Assembly: GCA_000092065.1 (NCBI GenBank)
Contig: CP000593.1
Length of the DNA stretch: 64,000 nucleotides
Strand: one strand, 5' to 3'
From: Ostreococcus lucimarinus
Taxonomy: Eukaryota
Under the pieces are notes generated by a model, which ran no database searches, was not told where the DNA came from, and was given only the letters and a program-made list of their open reading frames with translations. The translations under genes were made by a program, and so were the position numbers. Below, piece after piece: positions 6,675 through 14,136 of this stretch (positions are counted from its first letter, which is position 1; the number at the start of each line of letters is the position of its first letter).

Positions 6675-9410
6675 TCACCGGGAAAGCGCCTCTGAGCGCG
6701 GCGGTGGCGAAAGCGATTGTCGCCGAGGTCTAGACGCTCGAGCTACTACTCTCGCCTCGGCTAAGCCTGTCTCCATGTTAGATACCGTCAGATTCAGGAG
6801 TGTCTCGAGCTGAGCAGTGACTTCGCTGAGTCGCTCGTTCGTTTCCGCCAACGCAGCTGTTTGCTTTGCCTGTGAAGATGTTATTTTACGATCGAGGGGC
6901 ACGAGGCGATTGGTGAGTTCGTCTACGCGGGTTTGCAACCGTTGAAGAGGATTCTCTGTGGATGTAGTATCCCACCCAGCCGCCGCAGCGGTGATCACGG
7001 GCGCTCGTGCGCTTGTCACGGGCGTCTGCGGCGGTGCTCCGTCTGTCGACGCCTTGTTAGCTCCCTTGCGCGGCGCCGTCATCGCCTTGCCCGTCGCCGC
7101 TTGTAGCGCTGTCGCCATCAAACTTGGCGGTCCAGAAGATTCATTTGTGACTACGTCTTCGATGTTCCCGTGATCGAGCAAAGAATTCAATTTCCGATGC
7201 ATCTCGGTCAGGGAGTACGCCAGGCGCCAATGAAACACGTCCACGGCGCGAGCCGTGTAACTCATCGGATCTCTCTCGCGTAATACTTTGTGGAAAATTC
7301 CTTGAACACCACGCTCAACGAGGAGTCGGTGGAGTGACACCCTATGAATCATGCCTCTGAAACGTTTCTGAATGACAACTGCCGCCTTCGTCTTCTGCTC
7401 GAGGATTTTCGGATCGTCCAAACCTTCTCCGTCGTCTCCGTAAATTATTCGCAACTTTTGTAAATAAAACGCAGGACGTGCGCTGACTTCGCGTGATAAA
7501 TCTGCGTCTAAGCCATACTTCTTCAAAGCGGTGTATGCTTTGGTATACGCGATTATTTCGCCTCTAAAAATAATCTTGATACCTTTGAGACGGAAGAACT
7601 TTTTCGTCGCGGGGAATGGCGCGAGCGACTCGTGAAAATCTTCGCGTTCGAGGGTGTAGATGTTCGCGTACGTCAACGCCTGTGCGCCGTAGAGCAGCGT
7701 ATCGGATGAGTACAACGCCTCCTCTGCGATAGTTTTCCCAGACATTTTTATCAATCCATCGACTTGAACGACACCACGGCGAATGAGGAAAATGGTTGAC
7801 ACTGCATCACCGGGTCTGAACAACGTCTCCTCTGGCGGAAACGTGTGCTCGACGACACGAGTCGACAAGTGAATGACCAGTGGCTCAGGGCAGTGTTTGA
7901 AAAAGTCGATATTACGTATCCACGTATTCATGCGCATAGTGCACTCAGATCGCAATGCCGGCGACATTTTGTCGAGCAATCTTCTGTACACGTCGGCGTC
8001 GGCGCCATCGAGTTGATACTTGAAATACTCTCGTAAGCGAACGCGCAAATCCTGGGGAAAACCGTGATCAATTAGGAATCCATTCAAGTCCCGCATCACG
8101 CCTTGGAACTTGTTCACCTTTTCGTTCCTCGTGGCGATGACGTTCGACACAGCCCCCACGATGTAACCGTACTCAAACGCGCCGATGAGCATGGCCATGA
8201 TGACGTACACTCGCTCTCCAGTCGTTACTGGAACGATGTCTCCGTAACCGATGGTGGAGATGGTCATCGTGGACCAGTATAGCGCCGCAAGATACAGCCT
8301 CAACGAGCCGACGATCTCTCGCGGCTCACCCCCGTCGGGACCGATGACCAAATCTCCGAACTCTGTGGATCGCGTCCAAGAGTACTTCGTCCCTTCCAAA
8401 TCTTCAACCAAGCCGAATCCACACGCGAGCCAATGCGCAAACATGATTGCCGTCAAGCCAAACTTCATGAGCTCTAATAATGAGTAATCGATGGTGTAAA
8501 CCAATTCCAGCCGCTTGTAAATTCGGTTCACTCGTAAAATCCGCACGAGTTTGACGAGACGCAGAAGACGCAACGTCCTCAGAATACTGAGCTGCGCCAA
8601 CGCGCTCGAGCCGACGCCCAAATACATGGCGTCGAACGGAATCGCCGACAAAAAGTCTATGACAAACCACTTTTTGAGATACGTTCGGGCGACGTACGCC
8701 TGATTGTAAACCAAGTGCCCAGTGCGGTGATGAGGCGTGGCGATGAAAAAGTTCAACACGAGGTCGGTGACAAAGCAAGCCGTCACGAACTGGTTGATGT
8801 AAAACAACGCGTTGAAACTCGGGGTATAGAAACCGACTTCCATCGGAGTCACGATGGCGGTGTAACACAACAAAGCCATCATCACCGCCTCCCACTTTTG
8901 CAGAACGGGCTTTTGCGGCGACAACACCGCACGACTCTTCTTGTATCGAGCGCTCTGTTTCTTTCGAATCCGCAAAGTCTGCTGGCGATTCTCGCTCTTC
9001 TTTTTGCTCGTAGACTTTGAACCTTTCTCCGAAGACGAGCTAAAAATACTGCTGCTTACGGATCCGGTCTTCGCGTCGAGCGTCAAGCACGCCGCCGCCT
9101 CCGCCCGCATCAAATCCAACGCCGTCAGCGCGTGCGCGTGTCCCGCGCCCCGATCACTATCTCGCAAGCTCTGTCGTCCGTGTCGCCATCGCGAATACGC
9201 CTCATTCGCGTTCTCTGACGCAGATCCTTCATCGGTGTCGCTCGGCGAGCGGCGCCCGTTCCCCTCGCGTCCCCGTCCGTTCGCCGTCCGCCACGCCGCG
9301 TCCGCGTCCGCGTCCGCGTCGCCCATCGATCGTCCGGAGCGCATCACCGCGTCCATCGCTTCGAAGCCGTCGGCGTCGTCGTCGTCGTCGCGCGCGTCGC
9401 GTCGGTCCAT
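6675..9410 (-). CDS. voltage-gated K+ channel with C-terminal cyclic-nucleotide-binding domain (Shaker/KAT-AKT or EAG-like)
   Basis: Pore selectivity filter TISTIGYGDIVPV. S1-S6 hydrophobic segments with an Arg-spaced S4 (LRTLRLLRLVKLVRILR). C-linker plus cNMP-binding domain (FFKHCPEPLVIHLSTRVVEHTFPPEETLFRPGDAVSTIFLIRRG). ATG at 9410. Confidence 0.85.
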   Translation of the reverse strand: MDRRDARDDDDDADGFEAMDAVMRSGRSMGDADADADAAWRTANGRGREGNGRRSPSDTDEGSASENANEAYSRWRHGRQSLRDSDRGAGHAHALTALDLMRAEAAACLTLDAKTGSVSSSIFSSSSEKGSKSTSKKKSENRQQTLRIRKKQSARYKKSRAVLSPQKPVLQKWEAVMMALLCYTAIVTPMEVGFYTPSFNALFYINQFVTACFVTDLVLNFFIATPHHRTGHLVYNQAYVARTYLKKWFVIDFLSAIPFDAMYLGVGSSALAQLSILRTLRLLRLVKLVRILRVNRIYKRLELVYTIDYSLLELMKFGLTAIMFAHWLACGFGLVEDLEGTKYSWTRSTEFGDLVIGPDGGEPREIVGSLRLYLAALYWSTMTISTIGYGDIVPVTTGERVYVIMAMLIGAFEYGYIVGAVSNVIATRNEKVNKFQGVMRDLNGFLIDHGFPQDLRVRLREYFKYQLDGADADVYRRLLDKMSPALRSECTMRMNTWIRNIDFFKHCPEPLVIHLSTRVVEHTFPPEETLFRPGDAVSTIFLIRRGVVQVDGLIKMSGKTIAEEALYSSDTLLYGAQALTYANIYTLEREDFHESLAPFPATKKFFRLKGIKIIFRGEIIAYTKAYTALKKYGLDADLSREVSARPAFYLQKLRIIYGDDGEGLDDPKILEQKTKAAVVIQKRFRGMIHRVSLHRLLVERGVQGIFHKVLRERDPMSYTARAVDVFHWRLAYSLTEMHRKLNSLLDHGNIEDVVTNESSGPPSLMATALQAATGKAMTAPRKGANKASTDGAPPQTPVTSARAPVITAAAAGWDTTSTENPLQRLQTRVDELTNRLVPLDRKITSSQAKQTAALAETNERLSEVTAQLETLLNLTVSNMETGLAEARVVARASRPRRQSLSPPPRSEALSR

Positions 9411-9693: not shown

Positions 9694-11725
9694 CTATCCA
9701 CGCTTTGCGCCGCAAAAGGCGCAAAATTTCGCCGCGGGCTTGTCGAAGCCGACGCCGCAGGAGATACAAAACTTTGCGCCGCGAGACGCGCCGGCGGTGG
9801 CGCGTCCGATGCCGGGCGCGAGCGTCTCGCAGTCGGCGCCGAGAGGAGTCTGATCGAGGAATTCGGGCTCTGGGATGCCTCGGGTGTCGCAAACGCGACA
9901 GGCGAATAAGGAACCGGCATCCATGCGACCGGGCTCGGCGCGCGTGGTGACAAAGAGTGTGTCGAGTTCGGGGCCGCCGAGCGTGACGGAGGTGGGCGCC
10001 TTGACGGGGAGCTCGACGACGAGGTCGACGGCGCCTTGCGGGGTGATGCGAATGACTTGACCGGCGCCGGAAATCGCAGCCCACAAGTTACCGTCTTCGT
10101 CGCACTGCGCGCCATCGGGTCCGCCGCTCATCGAGCTCGGGAGCTCGTAGAGAAGGCGACGATTGGACGGTCCGACGCGAGAGTCGTAGTCGAACTGGTA
10201 AATTTTCCGCGTCGGTGTATCGCAGAAAAACATCGTCGTTCCCGATCTCGAGAAGCAAATGCAGTTGCTGCACCTGAATTTGTAGTCCAGAATTTCTTCC
10301 AACTCGCCTCCGTTTCCGGGCAGGCGCCATAATCCGCCGATGGGCGCCGCGTCAACGCGGTGGGCGTTGTTGTACGAACCGATGACAAAGGAGCCGGCTC
10401 GGTCGACTCGCCCGTCGTTCGGGCGCGTGTTCAATCCAGGTTCGAACTCGCTCAAGAGCTTCAACTTCTTCGTCGACGGGTCGAATGCGTGGAGTCCAGA
10501 CTCTAAACCGAGGAGCAAGGTGCCGTTAGACCGAAGCGCGACGCAGCCGAGCGTCTCTCCGAAGTTGTTTCGTGTGGGCGCCGACTTCAAGTCCCACGAA
10601 AACAACGTACCGCTCGGTGCGTCGACCCAGTAAAGGGTCTGACGTTCTTGCGACCATATCGGAGACTCGCCGAGTTGCATGCCGCAAGGAACGACTTCTT
10701 CGGCCCAGAGCTTTTGCGGTCCTACGGGGGATTCGTCAAAGTTGAAGATTCTGCCAAACTGCTCGGCGTTGAGCGAGGCCCCGCCGACGAGGCAACCATC
10801 GACGTCCGGCGCCTGCATGAGCTCATCCACCGTTTCTGGCTTCACGCTACCACCGTACTGAATTTGAATTTTCGCCGCCACGGATTCGCCGTAATTCGTT
10901 CGGAACCATTGGCGAATGCCCGCGTGAACTGACTGGGCGATCGCCGGCGTCGCCGTTAATCCCGTGCCGATGGCCCACACGGGCTCGTACGCGATGATAA
11001 CCTTGGACATTTCATCCGCTTCTACACCGCTGAGCGCCGCGCTGAGTTGCCTGTTGCAGACCTTTTTCGCCTCACCTCGTTCGTACTCTTCCTTCGTTTC
11101 GCCGATGCACAGTACCGCGGTCATGCCGCAGTCGAGCGTCTTTCGAGTCTTGAGTCGCGTCATCTCATCCGTCTCCCCGAAAAGTTCTCGGCGTTCAGAG
11201 TGCCCGATGAGCACGTGCGTGCACCCCACGCTCTTCGCCATTTCCGCGCTCATCTCCCCCGTGAACGCACCCGAGGCTTCGAAGTAAATATTCTGAGCCC
11301 CCACGGCGACGCCGCTTCCCTCCAACTACGTTTAGGATAACGTTAACGTTCGCGTCAGTCCATCGTCCGAGTTCGCGCGCGCGCCCGCGCTTCGACTCAT
11401 CCCGCGCGAGTCCGCGTAACTATGACTATGAATTTCAAAAGCAGCAGCCCCGGTAGAGGACCGGCTTCAATTCTCAACAATGTGTAAAGTCTCTTCATCC
11501 TCGCTCGATTCGGATAGAATCGCGTTCCTTCGTCGCGTCGCGCGTTCGCTTCGTTCGTACCGTTCTCGCCACCTCAGCCGCAAACGGCGCCGGCGGACAC
11601 ACAAAAACCTCTGTTTTACTCTTATTCGTCCCGATTCCACCGTCTCGCGCCGCCGCGCCGACCAACGCCGCCAACGTCCTCGCCTCGTCCAGCGTCTTCG
11701 GGTTGAGCTTCCAATTCCCCGCCAT
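9694..11725 (-). CDS. fusion protein: triosephosphate isomerase + SMP-30/gluconolactonase/LRE-like (SGL) domain + C-terminal Cys4 zinc ribbon (2 exons: 11725..11561, 11325..9694)
   Basis: Exon 1 (tail of track ORF 11495..12193) MAGNWKLNPK...EVFVCPPAPFAAEVART. Donor acg|GTACGA, acceptor tAG|TTGGAG. Exon 2 (track ORF 9694..11325) LEGSGVAVGAQNIYFEASGAFTGE...GHSERR...AYEPVWAIGTG...IQYGGSV...GGASLNAEQFGRIFNF. The same ORF continues without a stop into EVVPCGMQLGESPIWSQERQTLYWVD...DGNLWAAISGAGQVIRITP (regucalcin-like) and ends FCISCGVGFDKPAAKFCAFCGAK. Upstream in-frame ATGs at 11797 or 12010 could add an organelle presequence. Confidence 0.7.
11326..11560 (-). other. intron (235 nt) of TPI-SGL gene
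   Basis: Removes a stop and restores the exact TPI spacing (ARQKLDPK-IAVAAQ in human vs ART-LEGSG-VAVGAQ here). Branch-like GGACTGACGC about 30 nt upstream of the acceptor. Confidence 0.55.
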
Positions 11726-12075
11726 GACCGCGTTTCTCTTCCCTCGCCCGCTCTCATCGCGCGCGCCGACCTCCGCGCGCACGCTCGCCATCGCCATGGA
11801 CCTTTCGAGCGCATCGATCGCCTCCGCGCGCTCCCCCGGCGCTCTCAGCGCGTCATCTTTCGTCGCCGCCGGCGATTCTCGGCGGCGGTTGAATCGATCG
11901 AACACGCCCGCGCGCGTCGTCGCGCGTCGACCCCGTCGCGCCGCGCGCGTCGTCGCCGCGCTCGCGCCCGCGCTTCGCCCGCGCATCGCGCTCTGCCGCG
12001 CGCCGAGCATCGCGACGTCGCGCGCGCGCGTCGTCGTGTGTCGAGCGCGGTCGCCAGTGCGCGACGCGACGCGCG

Positions 12076-14136
12076 ATGCGCGCGGCGCGCGCGCGGACCG
12101 GCGCGATCGGCGCGCGCGCGACGCGGCGCGCGTCGTCGACGCGCGCGCGTCGCGACGCGGCGCGCATCGGCGCGTCCGCGGCGTCGAAATCATCGTCGCC
12201 GTCGTCCGAGAGGGACGACATCGGCGCGGACGGCGCCGGCGTCGCCGTCGTCGGCGTCGGCGCGCGCGGGTGCGCGCTCGTCGACGCGCTCGTCGACGCC
12301 AGAGCGCTGCCGAGGGCGGAGATGTGGGCGATGCACGCGGACGAGGACGCGCTCGAGCGCTCGCGCGCGGCGAACCGGTGGCGGTTGCCGCCGGCGAACG
12401 TCGAGGCGACGACGACGGCGATCGAGGGCAACGCGGCGAGCGCGGCGAGAGCGGTGATGGCGATGGGAGCGCCGAGGGTGATGGTGGTCGTGTGCGCGGG
12501 AGGGGAGGCGGTGGAGAGCGCGACGGCGTTTACGCGATGGGCGACGCGGGAGAAGAACGCGCGAGCGAAGAAGAAACGGTTTTTTGGATTCAAGGGAGCG
12601 AATCGCGCGCCGGAGGGTGAGATCATGATCGCGGGGGTGATCGAACCGTTCACGTTCGAGGGAAGGCGGAAGCAACGCGGGTGCGATGAGTTTTTGAGAG
12701 CGTGCGCGGAGCCGGGGGCGTGCGACGCGGCGCTGACGGTGTCGCAGTCCGAGCTGTTGAAGAACGGAGAGGATGGAATGTCCGTGCAAGACGCGACGTC
12801 GATCGCGGATGCGTCTTTGTTGTACGCCGTGCTGAGCGCGGTGGAATCGCTCCGATCGAGCTGCTGGAGCTCGGGCGGGGAACGCGACGCGAGCGACGTC
12901 GACGCGTGGACGCCTCAAATCGAAAAGGGTGGGCGTCTTCGGGCGAAGGTGAACGATGTCATGTCGTCTCACGGTGGTGGGTGCGGCGTCGCGCACGTAG
13001 GTCGCGGTGTCGCCGATGTGCCGACGTACGGAAGCGCGGACGAGGCGATCGCCGCCGCCGCGCGCGCCGCCATCGCGACGGCGGCGCGGCAGAGTCCTTT
13101 TCTGGCTCCCGGGCGCTTCGACACCGCTCGATTGGTCATCTGCACCGTGAAGCACGGCAACGCGTTTGGACCGCTCGCGCGCGCGACGATTTCTCAAGCG
13201 CTGAGTGAACTCACGAGTGCGGAACAATTCATTTCAATCGCGAATCCAGACAAGAGAGGCTCGACCGAAGTGGAAGTGACCCTGCTCACCGTCACCGACG
13301 CCGAAACGGCGGCGGCACCGGCGCCGGAATCAAAGACCGTTCCCGTCGTGTCCGAGGACCCACTGCATAAGTCGAATCCGATGCTGTTCGTGCCTGGATA
13401 CGTTGCCGGCGAAGAGCAGACAAAGCGTAAGACGACGAAGCTTTCGCGGGACGATTTGAAAAATTTCGGTAACGACGACACGCAAGCGATTGTCGCCACG
13501 GAAGAGCGCGCCGTAATTTTCACCTCCGATCAACTCGCGACGACTGCCGTCATCGCACCGGAAGTAACCGGCGCTGAGCGCTCTTCACGCTCCGCTGCGC
13601 TTCCTCTCCCGCGCGACTTCGCCACCAAGCAAGTCACCGTGCGCGTCAGCGAACCGCGGATGGACGAGTCTGGTAACGTCATCGGCTACAAGACGTTGCA
13701 AGGCGAGGAACCGGACAAAAAGTCTTCACCGGTCAAAACTCTGTTTGGGTGGCGACCCGACAAACCCAAAAAGCAAGAAAAATCTGAACTCTCCAGGCGC
13801 GCGCTCGGCATGCTCGAACAAGACGGGAAAAGAAGAGGAGCCGCCGTTCGAATGGAATTCGCCAACACCTCCGTCTACGAAGGCGAATGGGCGGACGGAA
13901 AACGCGAGGGTGTCGGTCGTCAAGTATTTGCGGACGGTGATTGGTACGAGGGGAATTGGTTTGCAGATCTCCCGGACGGGAAAGGGAAGCTTAGCTTCAA
14001 GACGGGAGAAAACAGCTTCTTTGAAGGCATGTTCAACGCGGGCGTGCCGGATGGCCCGGGTAAGCTCGTGCGCACATCGGGCGACGAGCTCGTCGGCATG
14101 TGGCGCGACGGTGCGTACGTGGACGAGGAGAATTAG
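12076..14136 (+). CDS. ARC3: ARC3-like plastid-division protein (degenerate FtsZ-like GTPase domain + C-terminal MORN repeats)
   Basis: FtsZ-like segments VAVVGVGARGCALVDAL, MVVVCAGGEAVES (degenerate GGGTGTG), IAGVIEPFTFEGRRKQ...DAALTVSQSELL. C-terminus YEGEWADGKREGVGRQVFADGDWYEGNWFADLPDGKGKLSF (MORN). ATG at 12076. Confidence 0.6.
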   Translation: MRAARARTGAIGARATRRASSTRARRDAARIGASAASKSSSPSSERDDIGADGAGVAVVGVGARGCALVDALVDARALPRAEMWAMHADEDALERSRAANRWRLPPANVEATTTAIEGNAASAARAVMAMGAPRVMVVVCAGGEAVESATAFTRWATREKNARAKKKRFFGFKGANRAPEGEIMIAGVIEPFTFEGRRKQRGCDEFLRACAEPGACDAALTVSQSELLKNGEDGMSVQDATSIADASLLYAVLSAVESLRSSCWSSGGERDASDVDAWTPQIEKGGRLRAKVNDVMSSHGGGCGVAHVGRGVADVPTYGSADEAIAAAARAAIATAARQSPFLAPGRFDTARLVICTVKHGNAFGPLARATISQALSELTSAEQFISIANPDKRGSTEVEVTLLTVTDAETAAAPAPESKTVPVVSEDPLHKSNPMLFVPGYVAGEEQTKRKTTKLSRDDLKNFGNDDTQAIVATEERAVIFTSDQLATTAVIAPEVTGAERSSRSAALPLPRDFATKQVTVRVSEPRMDESGNVIGYKTLQGEEPDKKSSPVKTLFGWRPDKPKKQEKSELSRRALGMLEQDGKRRGAAVRMEFANTSVYEGEWADGKREGVGRQVFADGDWYEGNWFADLPDGKGKLSFKTGENSFFEGMFNAGVPDGPGKLVRTSGDELVGMWRDGAYVDEEN

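Follow-up and report, generated by a model that had tools for sequence, protein, structure and literature searches.

Carbon fixation and glycolysis both depend on triosephosphate isomerase (TPI) as a core enzyme, and enzyme fusions are often read as a sign that the joined activities serve a shared process. A fusion protein of TPI with GAPDH was reportedly described by Liaud et al. in 2000. This TPI-GAPDH fusion is mitochondrial and occurs in stramenopiles such as diatoms and oomycetes and in other eukaryotes (Nakayama et al., 2012; PMC3527533), and the carbohydrate model of Phaeodactylum by Kroth et al. gives three enzyme fusions, among which a pairing of TPI with an SMP-30/gluconolactonase-like (SGL) domain does not appear (PMC2173943). 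Here, we analyzed a window of 64,000 nucleotides (the whole stretch of DNA under study, to which all positions refer) from contig CP000593.1 of the Ostreococcus lucimarinus assembly GCA_000092065.1. On its minus strand lies a two-exon gene (ATG 12010-11561 plus 11325-9694) with a product of 693 amino acids that joins a TPI domain to an SGL beta-propeller and a C-terminal Cys4 zinc ribbon. A full-text search of the published literature found no description of a TPI-SMP30/gluconolactonase fusion, nor did a text search of Kroth 2008, Nakayama 2012, Schober 2019, and Santana-Molina 2025 find any mention of a TPI-SGL fusion. TPI fusions as such are known already, but the TPI-SGL pairing is not described in the literature found, and it is not peculiar to this locus. 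An earlier note on this DNA, made from the sequence alone, had called the architecture undescribed, which fits the literature that was searched; the fusion is nevertheless widespread in algae and present in public databases, where automatic pipelines name the fused proteins 'triosephosphate isomerase'.

The fusion is shared by nearly all of the closest relatives. Among the 120 best matches out of 5.8 billion clustered proteins, both the TIM and the SGL domain (Pfam) were present in 119, the exception being a 372-amino-acid fragment. The fusion is present in, among other named members, Chlamydomonas sp. UWO 241, C. eustigma, Prasinococcus, and a pedinophyte (Pedinophyceae), and also in Prymnesium parvum, Nitzschia, Chaetoceros, Cylindrotheca, Pseudo-nitzschia, and Amorphochlora, a chlorarachniophyte. 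Several fused members are transcriptome peptides from MMETSP or EukProt, and the closest named protein relative comes from a Mamiellophyceae transcriptome. A transcript peptide of Mamiellaceae sp. RCC2288 (60% identical) carries the fusion, which shows a single mRNA in this related member of the Mamiellophyceae. The window product shares 98% identity with P0001, the representative of its 90%-identity cluster, and a near-identical protein, the 536-amino-acid cluster member P0131, is found in 467 contig blocks assembled independently from unrelated samples. The distance from the GGASL motif of TPI to the LGESxW motif of the propeller is 32 residues in all Mamiellophyceae-type relatives and 31-50 in nearly all others. 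The fused proteins in our alignments of 48-56 sequences are ~45-60% identical overall. Judged from these comparisons, the locus is one nuclear gene of a Mamiellophyceae-type marine green alga, and its fusion is real and old and has been kept in green algae, diatoms, haptophytes, and chlorarachniophytes. The single TPI-SGL-ribbon polypeptide proposed in the earlier note is thus borne out by the 119 fused relatives and the near-constant length of the junction. The note had also suggested looking for conservation of the junction in Mamiellophyceae and other eukaryotes, and we found it conserved, including in transcriptome peptides. Of the outcomes that would have spoken against the note's proposal, we observed no stop or frameshift at the junction relative to the relatives, and orthologs encoded as separate genes are not the rule (119 out of 120 are fused).

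The gene model rests on a 543-amino-acid open frame (11325..9694, minus strand) that joins in frame to an upstream exon once 11560..11326 is excised; this upstream exon supplies the N-terminal quarter of TPI that is otherwise missing from the open frame. The spliced junction (..AAEVART/LEGSGVAVGAQ.., with the slash at the splice) aligns without indels to uninterrupted homologs and transcript-derived proteins, and two metagenome contigs from sister species (L009 and L011) carry an intron at the same codon, after ..ADVAR(T/I). These observations agree with the single intron that had been predicted at 11326-11560. Three in-frame ATGs lie upstream of the TPI core. The one at 12010 is most likely the start, because the leader that it adds is homologous to the leaders in L009 and L011, and the gene therefore reaches past position 11725, where the earlier note had placed its limit. 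The suggestion that upstream ATGs could add an organelle-targeting leader is likewise supported, as the 94-amino-acid leader from ATG 12010 is conserved in both contigs. The parts of the gene, in the direction of transcription, are as follows:

11729..12010, minus strand: N-terminal leader, amino acids 1-94, in frame with the TPI exon and with homologous leaders in L009 and L011
11561..11728, minus strand: exon-1 part of the TPI domain, amino acids 95-150 (Pfam TIM envelope 95-345), with AGNWK, which holds the catalytic Lys, at 11722-11708
11326..11560, minus strand: intron of 235 nucleotides, GT...AG (GTACG...CGTAG), phase 0
10741..11325, minus strand: exon-2 part of the TPI domain, amino acids 151-345, from Pfam and NCBIfam matches, motifs, and alignment
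11205-11188, 10992-10960, 10863-10843, and 10785-10771, minus strand: the TPI motifs GHSERR, AYEPVWAIGTG, IQYGGSV, and GGASL, respectively
10675..10740, minus strand: inter-domain linker, amino acids 346-367 (F-DESPVGPQKLWAE-EVVPCGMQ), with no stop or start codon
9859..10674, minus strand: SMP-30/gluconolactonase/LRE-like six-bladed propeller, amino acids 368-639, from its Pfam envelope (368-611) and fold match
10674-10654, 10428-10402, 10272-10252, and 10125-10099, minus strand: the propeller motifs LGESPIW, TRPNDGRVD, CSNCICF, and GGPDGAQCD, respectively, with putative metal and substrate residues
9879-9859, minus strand: GIPEPEF, the conserved end of the propeller fold
9772..9858, minus strand: low-complexity spacer, amino acids 640-668, of varying length and sequence among relatives
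9709..9771, minus strand: putative Cys4 zinc ribbon FCISCGVGFDKPAAKFCAFCG, amino acids 669-689, from Cys conservation
9694..9696, minus strand: stop codon TAG of the gene model

We consider it probable that the product is a bifunctional plastid protein, consisting of TPI and a metal-dependent lactonase. The Arg/Ala/Ser/Thr-rich leader would direct the 693-amino-acid precursor into the chloroplast. There, the TPI half would interconvert dihydroxyacetone phosphate (DHAP) and glyceraldehyde-3-phosphate, and the propeller, with a bound divalent metal, would hydrolyze a sugar-acid or sugar-phosphate lactone. The short structured linker would hold both enzymes in a fixed arrangement, and in green algae the Cys4 ribbon on its floppy spacer would serve as a zinc-stabilized knob for interaction or regulation. 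The TPI and lactonase halves may also be coupled metabolically.

The TPI half appears to be catalytically complete for the interconversion of DHAP and glyceraldehyde-3-phosphate. It matches the Pfam family TIM (PF00121) with 288 bits (cut-off 20.1, E-value 7.9e-86) over profile positions 2-243 out of 245, and the NCBIfam equivalog TIGR00419 with 189.5 bits (cut-off 130.6). The motifs GHSERR, AYEPVWAIGTG, and IQYGGSV, which had been noted before as marks of a complete TPI, are present. Across the 48-56 aligned fused homologs, the catalytic Lys (NWK), His, and Glu vary little or not at all, and the same is true of the phosphate-gripping loops IQYGGSV and GGASL; the roles of these residues are established in TPI enzymology. 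With AlphaFold2, we modeled the window exon-2 product, using an alignment of 56 sequences, and a full-length homolog (P0009, 62% identical). The predicted local distance difference test (pLDDT) was mostly >90 in the TPI part of the exon-2 model, and the TPI half of the P0009 model, a (beta/alpha)8 barrel, superimposes on the Gemmata TPI 4y96 with a template modeling score (TM) of 0.96 and a root-mean-square deviation of 1.3 A (Foldseek). A cyanobacterial origin of this half was considered and set aside: the solved structures that match it best are a mix of bacterial and eukaryotic TPIs that differ little in score, and for this reason we claim no origin for it.

The propeller half is most likely a divalent-metal lactonase that acts on a sugar-acid or sugar-phosphate lactone. 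Its match to the Pfam family SGL (PF08450) reaches 220.8 bits (cut-off 26.3, E-value 2.7e-65) and covers profile positions 1-244 out of 246, in agreement with the complete regucalcin/SGL domain that had been read in frame after TPI. On the whole protein, only TIM and SGL were found by Pfam at significant E-values (Vgb_lyase and HHH were weak), and no NCBIfam family model matched the propeller half. In the exon-2 model the propeller is all-beta with a pLDDT of 91-98, and in the P0009 model it matches 3g4e, 4gnc, and 7plc with a TM of 0.86-0.88 (Foldseek). The alignment columns for E (LGESPIW), R-x-N-D (TRPND), N (CSN), and D (GGPDG) are invariant or nearly so in the 48-56 fused homologs, and in phmmer alignments to 7plb and 4gn7 the segments GESPIW, TRPND, SN, and PDG align with the metal and substrate residues of SMP30 and XylC. 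We take the SMP30 equivalents to be Glu18, Arg101/Asn103, Asn154, and Asp204. An alternative is that the propeller is not an enzyme, and instead acts as a metal- or Ca2+-binding 'regucalcin'-like regulator or scaffold of TPI that would, for example, tether it to a Calvin-cycle complex, with the ribbon as a second docking site or redox sensor. Both beta-propellers and zinc ribbons often serve as interaction modules, the ribbon here sits on a flexible spacer, and to our knowledge no lactone-using pathway lies next to TPI. However, every SMP30/XylC metal and substrate residue is kept without change in lineages with only ~45% overall identity, the pattern of a conserved catalytic site, and the nearest bacterial stand-alone relatives lie in sugar-acid catabolic clusters; we consider the non-enzymatic role unlikely, though the strongest of the competing explanations. 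As a specific enzymatic role, that of a 6-phosphogluconolactonase was set aside, given that a complete oxidative pentose-phosphate pathway has been reported absent from diatom plastids (PMC2173943).

Relatives of the propeller outside the fusion point to a class of substrates. In a propeller-only HMMER scan of 1.84 billion representatives, the fused proteins rank first, followed by stand-alone SGL proteins of 290-400 amino acids (37-45% identity). The nearest of these belong to the cryptophytes Guillardia theta, Hemiselmis, and Hanusia (40-45% identity); the cryptophyte SGL proteins P0355, P0359, P0366, P0354, and P0358 have N-terminal signal peptides and no TPI, and a propeller is thus able to exist and work unfused in another algal lineage. 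Their signal peptides show no obvious Phe directly past the predicted cleavage region. In cryptophytes, proteins without this Phe are said to be periplastidial rather than stromal, which would hint at a different compartment for the cryptophyte propeller. The next relatives are proteins of Burkholderiaceae and Pseudomonas annotated as SMP-30/gluconolactonase/LRE family. From a bacterial genome scan with a four-sequence propeller alignment, we examined the neighborhoods of the 80 best bacterial relatives (L013-L092). The propeller relative adjoins a ~275-amino-acid NAD-dependent epimerase-family dehydrogenase (YxxxK motif, Udh-like) in 51 of these loci, and a TRAP transporter (DctP) is present in 43. 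The conserved cluster (e.g. L018, 5120-9800) comprises an OprD porin, a 275-amino-acid dehydrogenase, an SGL lactonase, and TRAP DctPQM. From Pfam family, size, and gene order, we infer that this setting corresponds to the arrangement of uronate dehydrogenase and UxuL in the oxidative hexuronate pathway. The bacterial kinship (33-40% identity) would point to aldono- or aldaro-1,5-lactones as a substrate class, not to a single substrate. Another protein, P0218 (970 amino acids), consists of three SGL propellers in tandem and is 30% identical to the query.

The linker bears on whether the two halves stay together. It is partly conserved (..P.KLWA.EV..), and its pLDDT is 82-93 in the exon-2 model, for which the predicted TM-score (pTM) is 0.83 and the mean pLDDT 90.6; the full-length P0009 model has a pTM of 0.80 and a pLDDT of 86.8. 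The high two-domain pTM and the confidently modeled linker argue for two domains in a predicted fixed arrangement rather than as beads on a string. A Foldseek search of the PDB found no chain spanning both halves (best query-normalized TM 0.40). The linker had previously been given as about 13 residues: it is indeed short and free of stop and ATG codons, but the gap between the Pfam envelopes is 22 residues, inside which the quoted 13 lie. It could still be that the fusion is only a precursor, whose linker is cut after import so that the halves act separately, with the fusion serving co-expression and co-targeting. According to Kroth et al. (PMC2173943), post-translational cleavage may occur in some enzyme fusions of diatoms, and the separate gene for the cryptophyte propeller suggests that the halves can work apart. 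We nonetheless regard such cleavage as rather improbable, since a short linker of constant length and partly conserved sequence, together with its pLDDT and the whole-chain pTM, fits a fixed body better than a cleavable tether.

The leader is presumed to consist of a transit peptide and a short conserved pre-TPI segment (..RAGVFDRF....AIDALERSMA..). Its first 40 amino acids include 10 R/K, 1 D/E, and 22 A/S/T/G and contain no hydrophobic core, and the leader has low pLDDT, indicating disorder, in the AlphaFold2 model of P0009. The alignment of the window (MLGARQ..RAGVFDRF..ALERSMA) with L009 (MFASP..RAGLLDAFR..LERAIA) and L011 (MLAST..RAGLLDHWR..LERSMA) extends over the leader. When comparing the window with the N-termini of P0010, P0013, P0017, and P0034-P0120, we observed a short conserved segment that separates the TPI core from the presumed transit peptide (window 11729-11900, amino acids ~35-94), with the sequence RAAIFQ..K..AV..LE..L in Micromonas-like members, RAG(V/L)(F/L)D...LERSMA in the window group, and (V/I)WY(D/E)DS(F/L)T in diatoms and haptophytes; in P0009 it is a helix predicted with low confidence.

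A signal-peptide-like hydrophobic core is present in 48 out of 73 full-length members without the ribbon, and in 40 of these 48 a motif of a small residue followed by Phe comes right after the core (e.g. SSLATA/FVFG and SVDA/FGIAP). A signal peptide followed by Phe (the ASAFAP motif) is the classical import signal of the complex plastids of the red lineage, and by this pattern the diatom and haptophyte members carry plastid-type presequences. None of the eight full-length ribbon-bearing members has such a core, as is expected for primary plastids, and their leaders, including that of the window, look like primary-plastid transit peptides. A chloroplast location in the source alga is, by this comparison, most likely. 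Instead, the green-algal protein might be mitochondrial, cytosolic, or dual-targeted through the internal ATGs at 11797, 11791, and 11725. Basic Ala/Arg-rich leaders of prasinophytes are indistinguishable by eye from mitochondrial presequences, internal in-frame ATGs are present, and TPI-GAPDH, another TPI fusion, is mitochondrial (PMC3527533). Against these points stand the diatom and haptophyte orthologs with a signal peptide and the plastid Phe motif, as well as the conservation in sister species of the 94-amino-acid leader from ATG 12010, and we give a location outside the plastid only a small chance. Finally, an artifact in which neighboring genes were joined by an assembly or sequencing frameshift, for which we found no point in favor, is excluded because a near-identical protein occurs in independent contigs (467 contig blocks), the fusion is present in 119 out of 120 relatives including transcriptomes, and the junction shows no stop or indel relative to them.

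Of all parts of the fusion, only the ribbon is lineage-restricted, to a green-algal subgroup. All four of its Cys residues are present in 28 of the 33 best relatives, a green-algal group that extends from Mamiellophyceae to Chlamydomonadales, and the ribbon was found in none of P0034-P0120 (diatoms, haptophytes, chlorarachniophytes, and pedinophytes). The Cys4 tail described in the earlier note is thus present, but its spacing is C-x2-C-x11-C-x2-C (CISC-GVGFDKPAAKF-CAFC) rather than C-x2-C-x10-C-x2-C. This spacing of the two CxxC knuckles lies inside the range of ~10-13 residues that characterizes such ribbons. The ribbon was modeled with a pLDDT of 77-86 and the preceding spacer with one of 53-56. 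As a predicted zinc site, it is most likely a zinc-stabilized knob for interaction or regulation.

Several points weigh against a bifunctional plastid TPI-lactonase with a zinc ribbon. Transcript support for the fusion comes from relatives, not from the source species itself. By eye, the leaders of green-lineage members fit chloroplast and mitochondrion alike. The window tail matches Zn_Ribbon_1 (PF13240) with 21.1 bits, below the cut-off of 25, and the ortholog tails reach 24.9, 25.4 (Chlamydomonas sp. UWO 241), and 22.5 bits; the ribbon assignment is therefore based on Cys conservation and not on a Pfam call. The propeller is ~26-40% identical to characterized lactonases, which is too low for the assignment of a substrate. 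A TPI gene was found by tblastn within 6 kb in none of the 80 best bacterial propeller loci, and there is thus no bacterial operon precedent for pairing TPI with a lactonase. In addition, we know of no pathway that links a lactone to triose phosphates. Without such a pathway or a bacterial TPI neighbor, a metabolic reason for the fusion is missing.

The intron contains a further conserved element:

11405..11505, minus strand: box C/D small nucleolar RNA (snoRNA)-like element of ~100 nucleotides, from conservation and a weak Rfam match

This block is nearly invariant in the window, L009, and L011, while the remaining intron does not align. It has a weak end-to-end match to Rfam SNORD46 (RF00218; snR63-like; 16.4 bits, gathering threshold 40, E-value 0.59), and its terminal stem (GCGAG/CUCGC) shows compensatory changes across the three sequences. 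AUGAAGA forms the C-like box; as D box, the window has CGGA and L009 has CUGA. The 11-nucleotide antisense element GUCAUAGUUAC matches the SNORD46 consensus at every position and is complementary to a universally conserved segment of the large-subunit ribosomal RNA. The block is probably an intron-encoded snoRNA which, if real, would explain why the intron has been retained. Scans of the whole window with Rfam at gathering threshold and for tRNAs found nothing. A BLAST search with the intron turned up no further copies of it in the window, and it is therefore not an introner-type repeat there.

The closest sequences to the locus are marine metagenome contigs, TARA among them, and in all related contigs the gene order is kept: a MORN-repeat gene upstream, TPI-SGL, and a cyclic-nucleotide-binding ion channel downstream. 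The start codons of TPI-SGL (12010, minus strand) and the divergent 686-amino-acid MORN-repeat gene (12076, plus strand) are 65 base pairs apart, so that either a putative bidirectional promoter is very compact or one of the two start calls lies too far upstream. A GC island (77-81% at ~11650-12400, compared to 62% for the whole window) spans the N-terminal coding regions of both genes. The downstream neighbor (6675-9410, minus strand) is a 911-amino-acid ion channel with Ion_trans, Ion_trans_2, and a weak cNMP-binding match, and its start lies 283 base pairs from the TPI-SGL stop.

The lineages that carry the fusion (green algae, diatoms, haptophytes, and chlorarachniophytes) perform much of marine primary production. 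That the fusion was retained in them would imply a lactone-hydrolyzing activity tied to plastid triose-phosphate metabolism. Current metabolic models do not include a link between a lactone and triose phosphates, and knowing the substrate could extend algal plastid metabolism by a reaction or a repair step. We tentatively entertain, as a possibility well short of probable, that this is an unrecognized plastid enzyme, spread over many groups of algae, whose lactonase half treats a lactone that arises near triose-phosphate or Calvin-cycle chemistry, coupled to TPI and, in green algae, under zinc or redox control by the ribbon. The lactonase could then belong to a sugar-acid route new to plastids or act in metabolite repair.

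The fusion shares parts with several known systems. SMP30/regucalcin gluconolactonase (3g4e, 4gn7, and 4gnc) has the same fold (TM 0.86) and the conserved Glu, Asn, Asn, and Asp residues; it is, however, a stand-alone animal cytosolic enzyme of ~300 amino acids with neither TPI nor ribbon, at 26-27% identity in the structural alignment. XylC of Caulobacter crescentus (7plb/7plc/7pld) is the best solved sequence match to the propeller (E-value 3e-27, TM 0.88, 30% identity) and has the same metal motifs, but it acts on its own in the bacterial oxidative pathway for xylose and is too distant for its substrate to be transferred. UxuL opens glucaro- and galactaro-1,5-lactones, according to the summary of Bouvier et al. 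in PMC6353982. Many of the closest bacterial propeller relatives (33-40% identity, ~290 amino acids) lie in a setting like that described for UxuL, with UxuL/Udh identity assigned from Pfam family, size, and gene order and the identity too low for specificity to be transferred, whereas the algal proteins are fused, predicted to be organelle-targeted, and without an operon context. The cryptophyte SGL proteins (Guillardia theta GUITHDRAFT_147780, Hemiselmis, and Hanusia) share the motifs and the C-terminal G-x-PEP, but have no TPI and no ribbon. In the PGK-TPI protein of Thermotoga-type bacteria (NF010569), TPI is fused as well, and the window TPI matches profile positions 401-642; with 272.7 bits against a cut-off of 883, the window protein is not a member. 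There, TPI is C-terminal and its partner is phosphoglycerate kinase, the opposite of the N-terminal TPI described here. The window protein contains no GAPDH domain by Pfam and is thus not a member of the TPI-GAPDH family either. TPI-GAPDH and TPI-SGL nevertheless both have an N-terminal TPI module behind an N-terminal organelle-targeting extension, and they occur in some of the same algal lineages. These two fusions differ in partner and presumed place: in TPI-GAPDH the partner is the next enzyme of the pathway and the protein is mitochondrial, whereas TPI-SGL combines a lactonase-type propeller with plastid-type presequences and, in green algae, a zinc ribbon.

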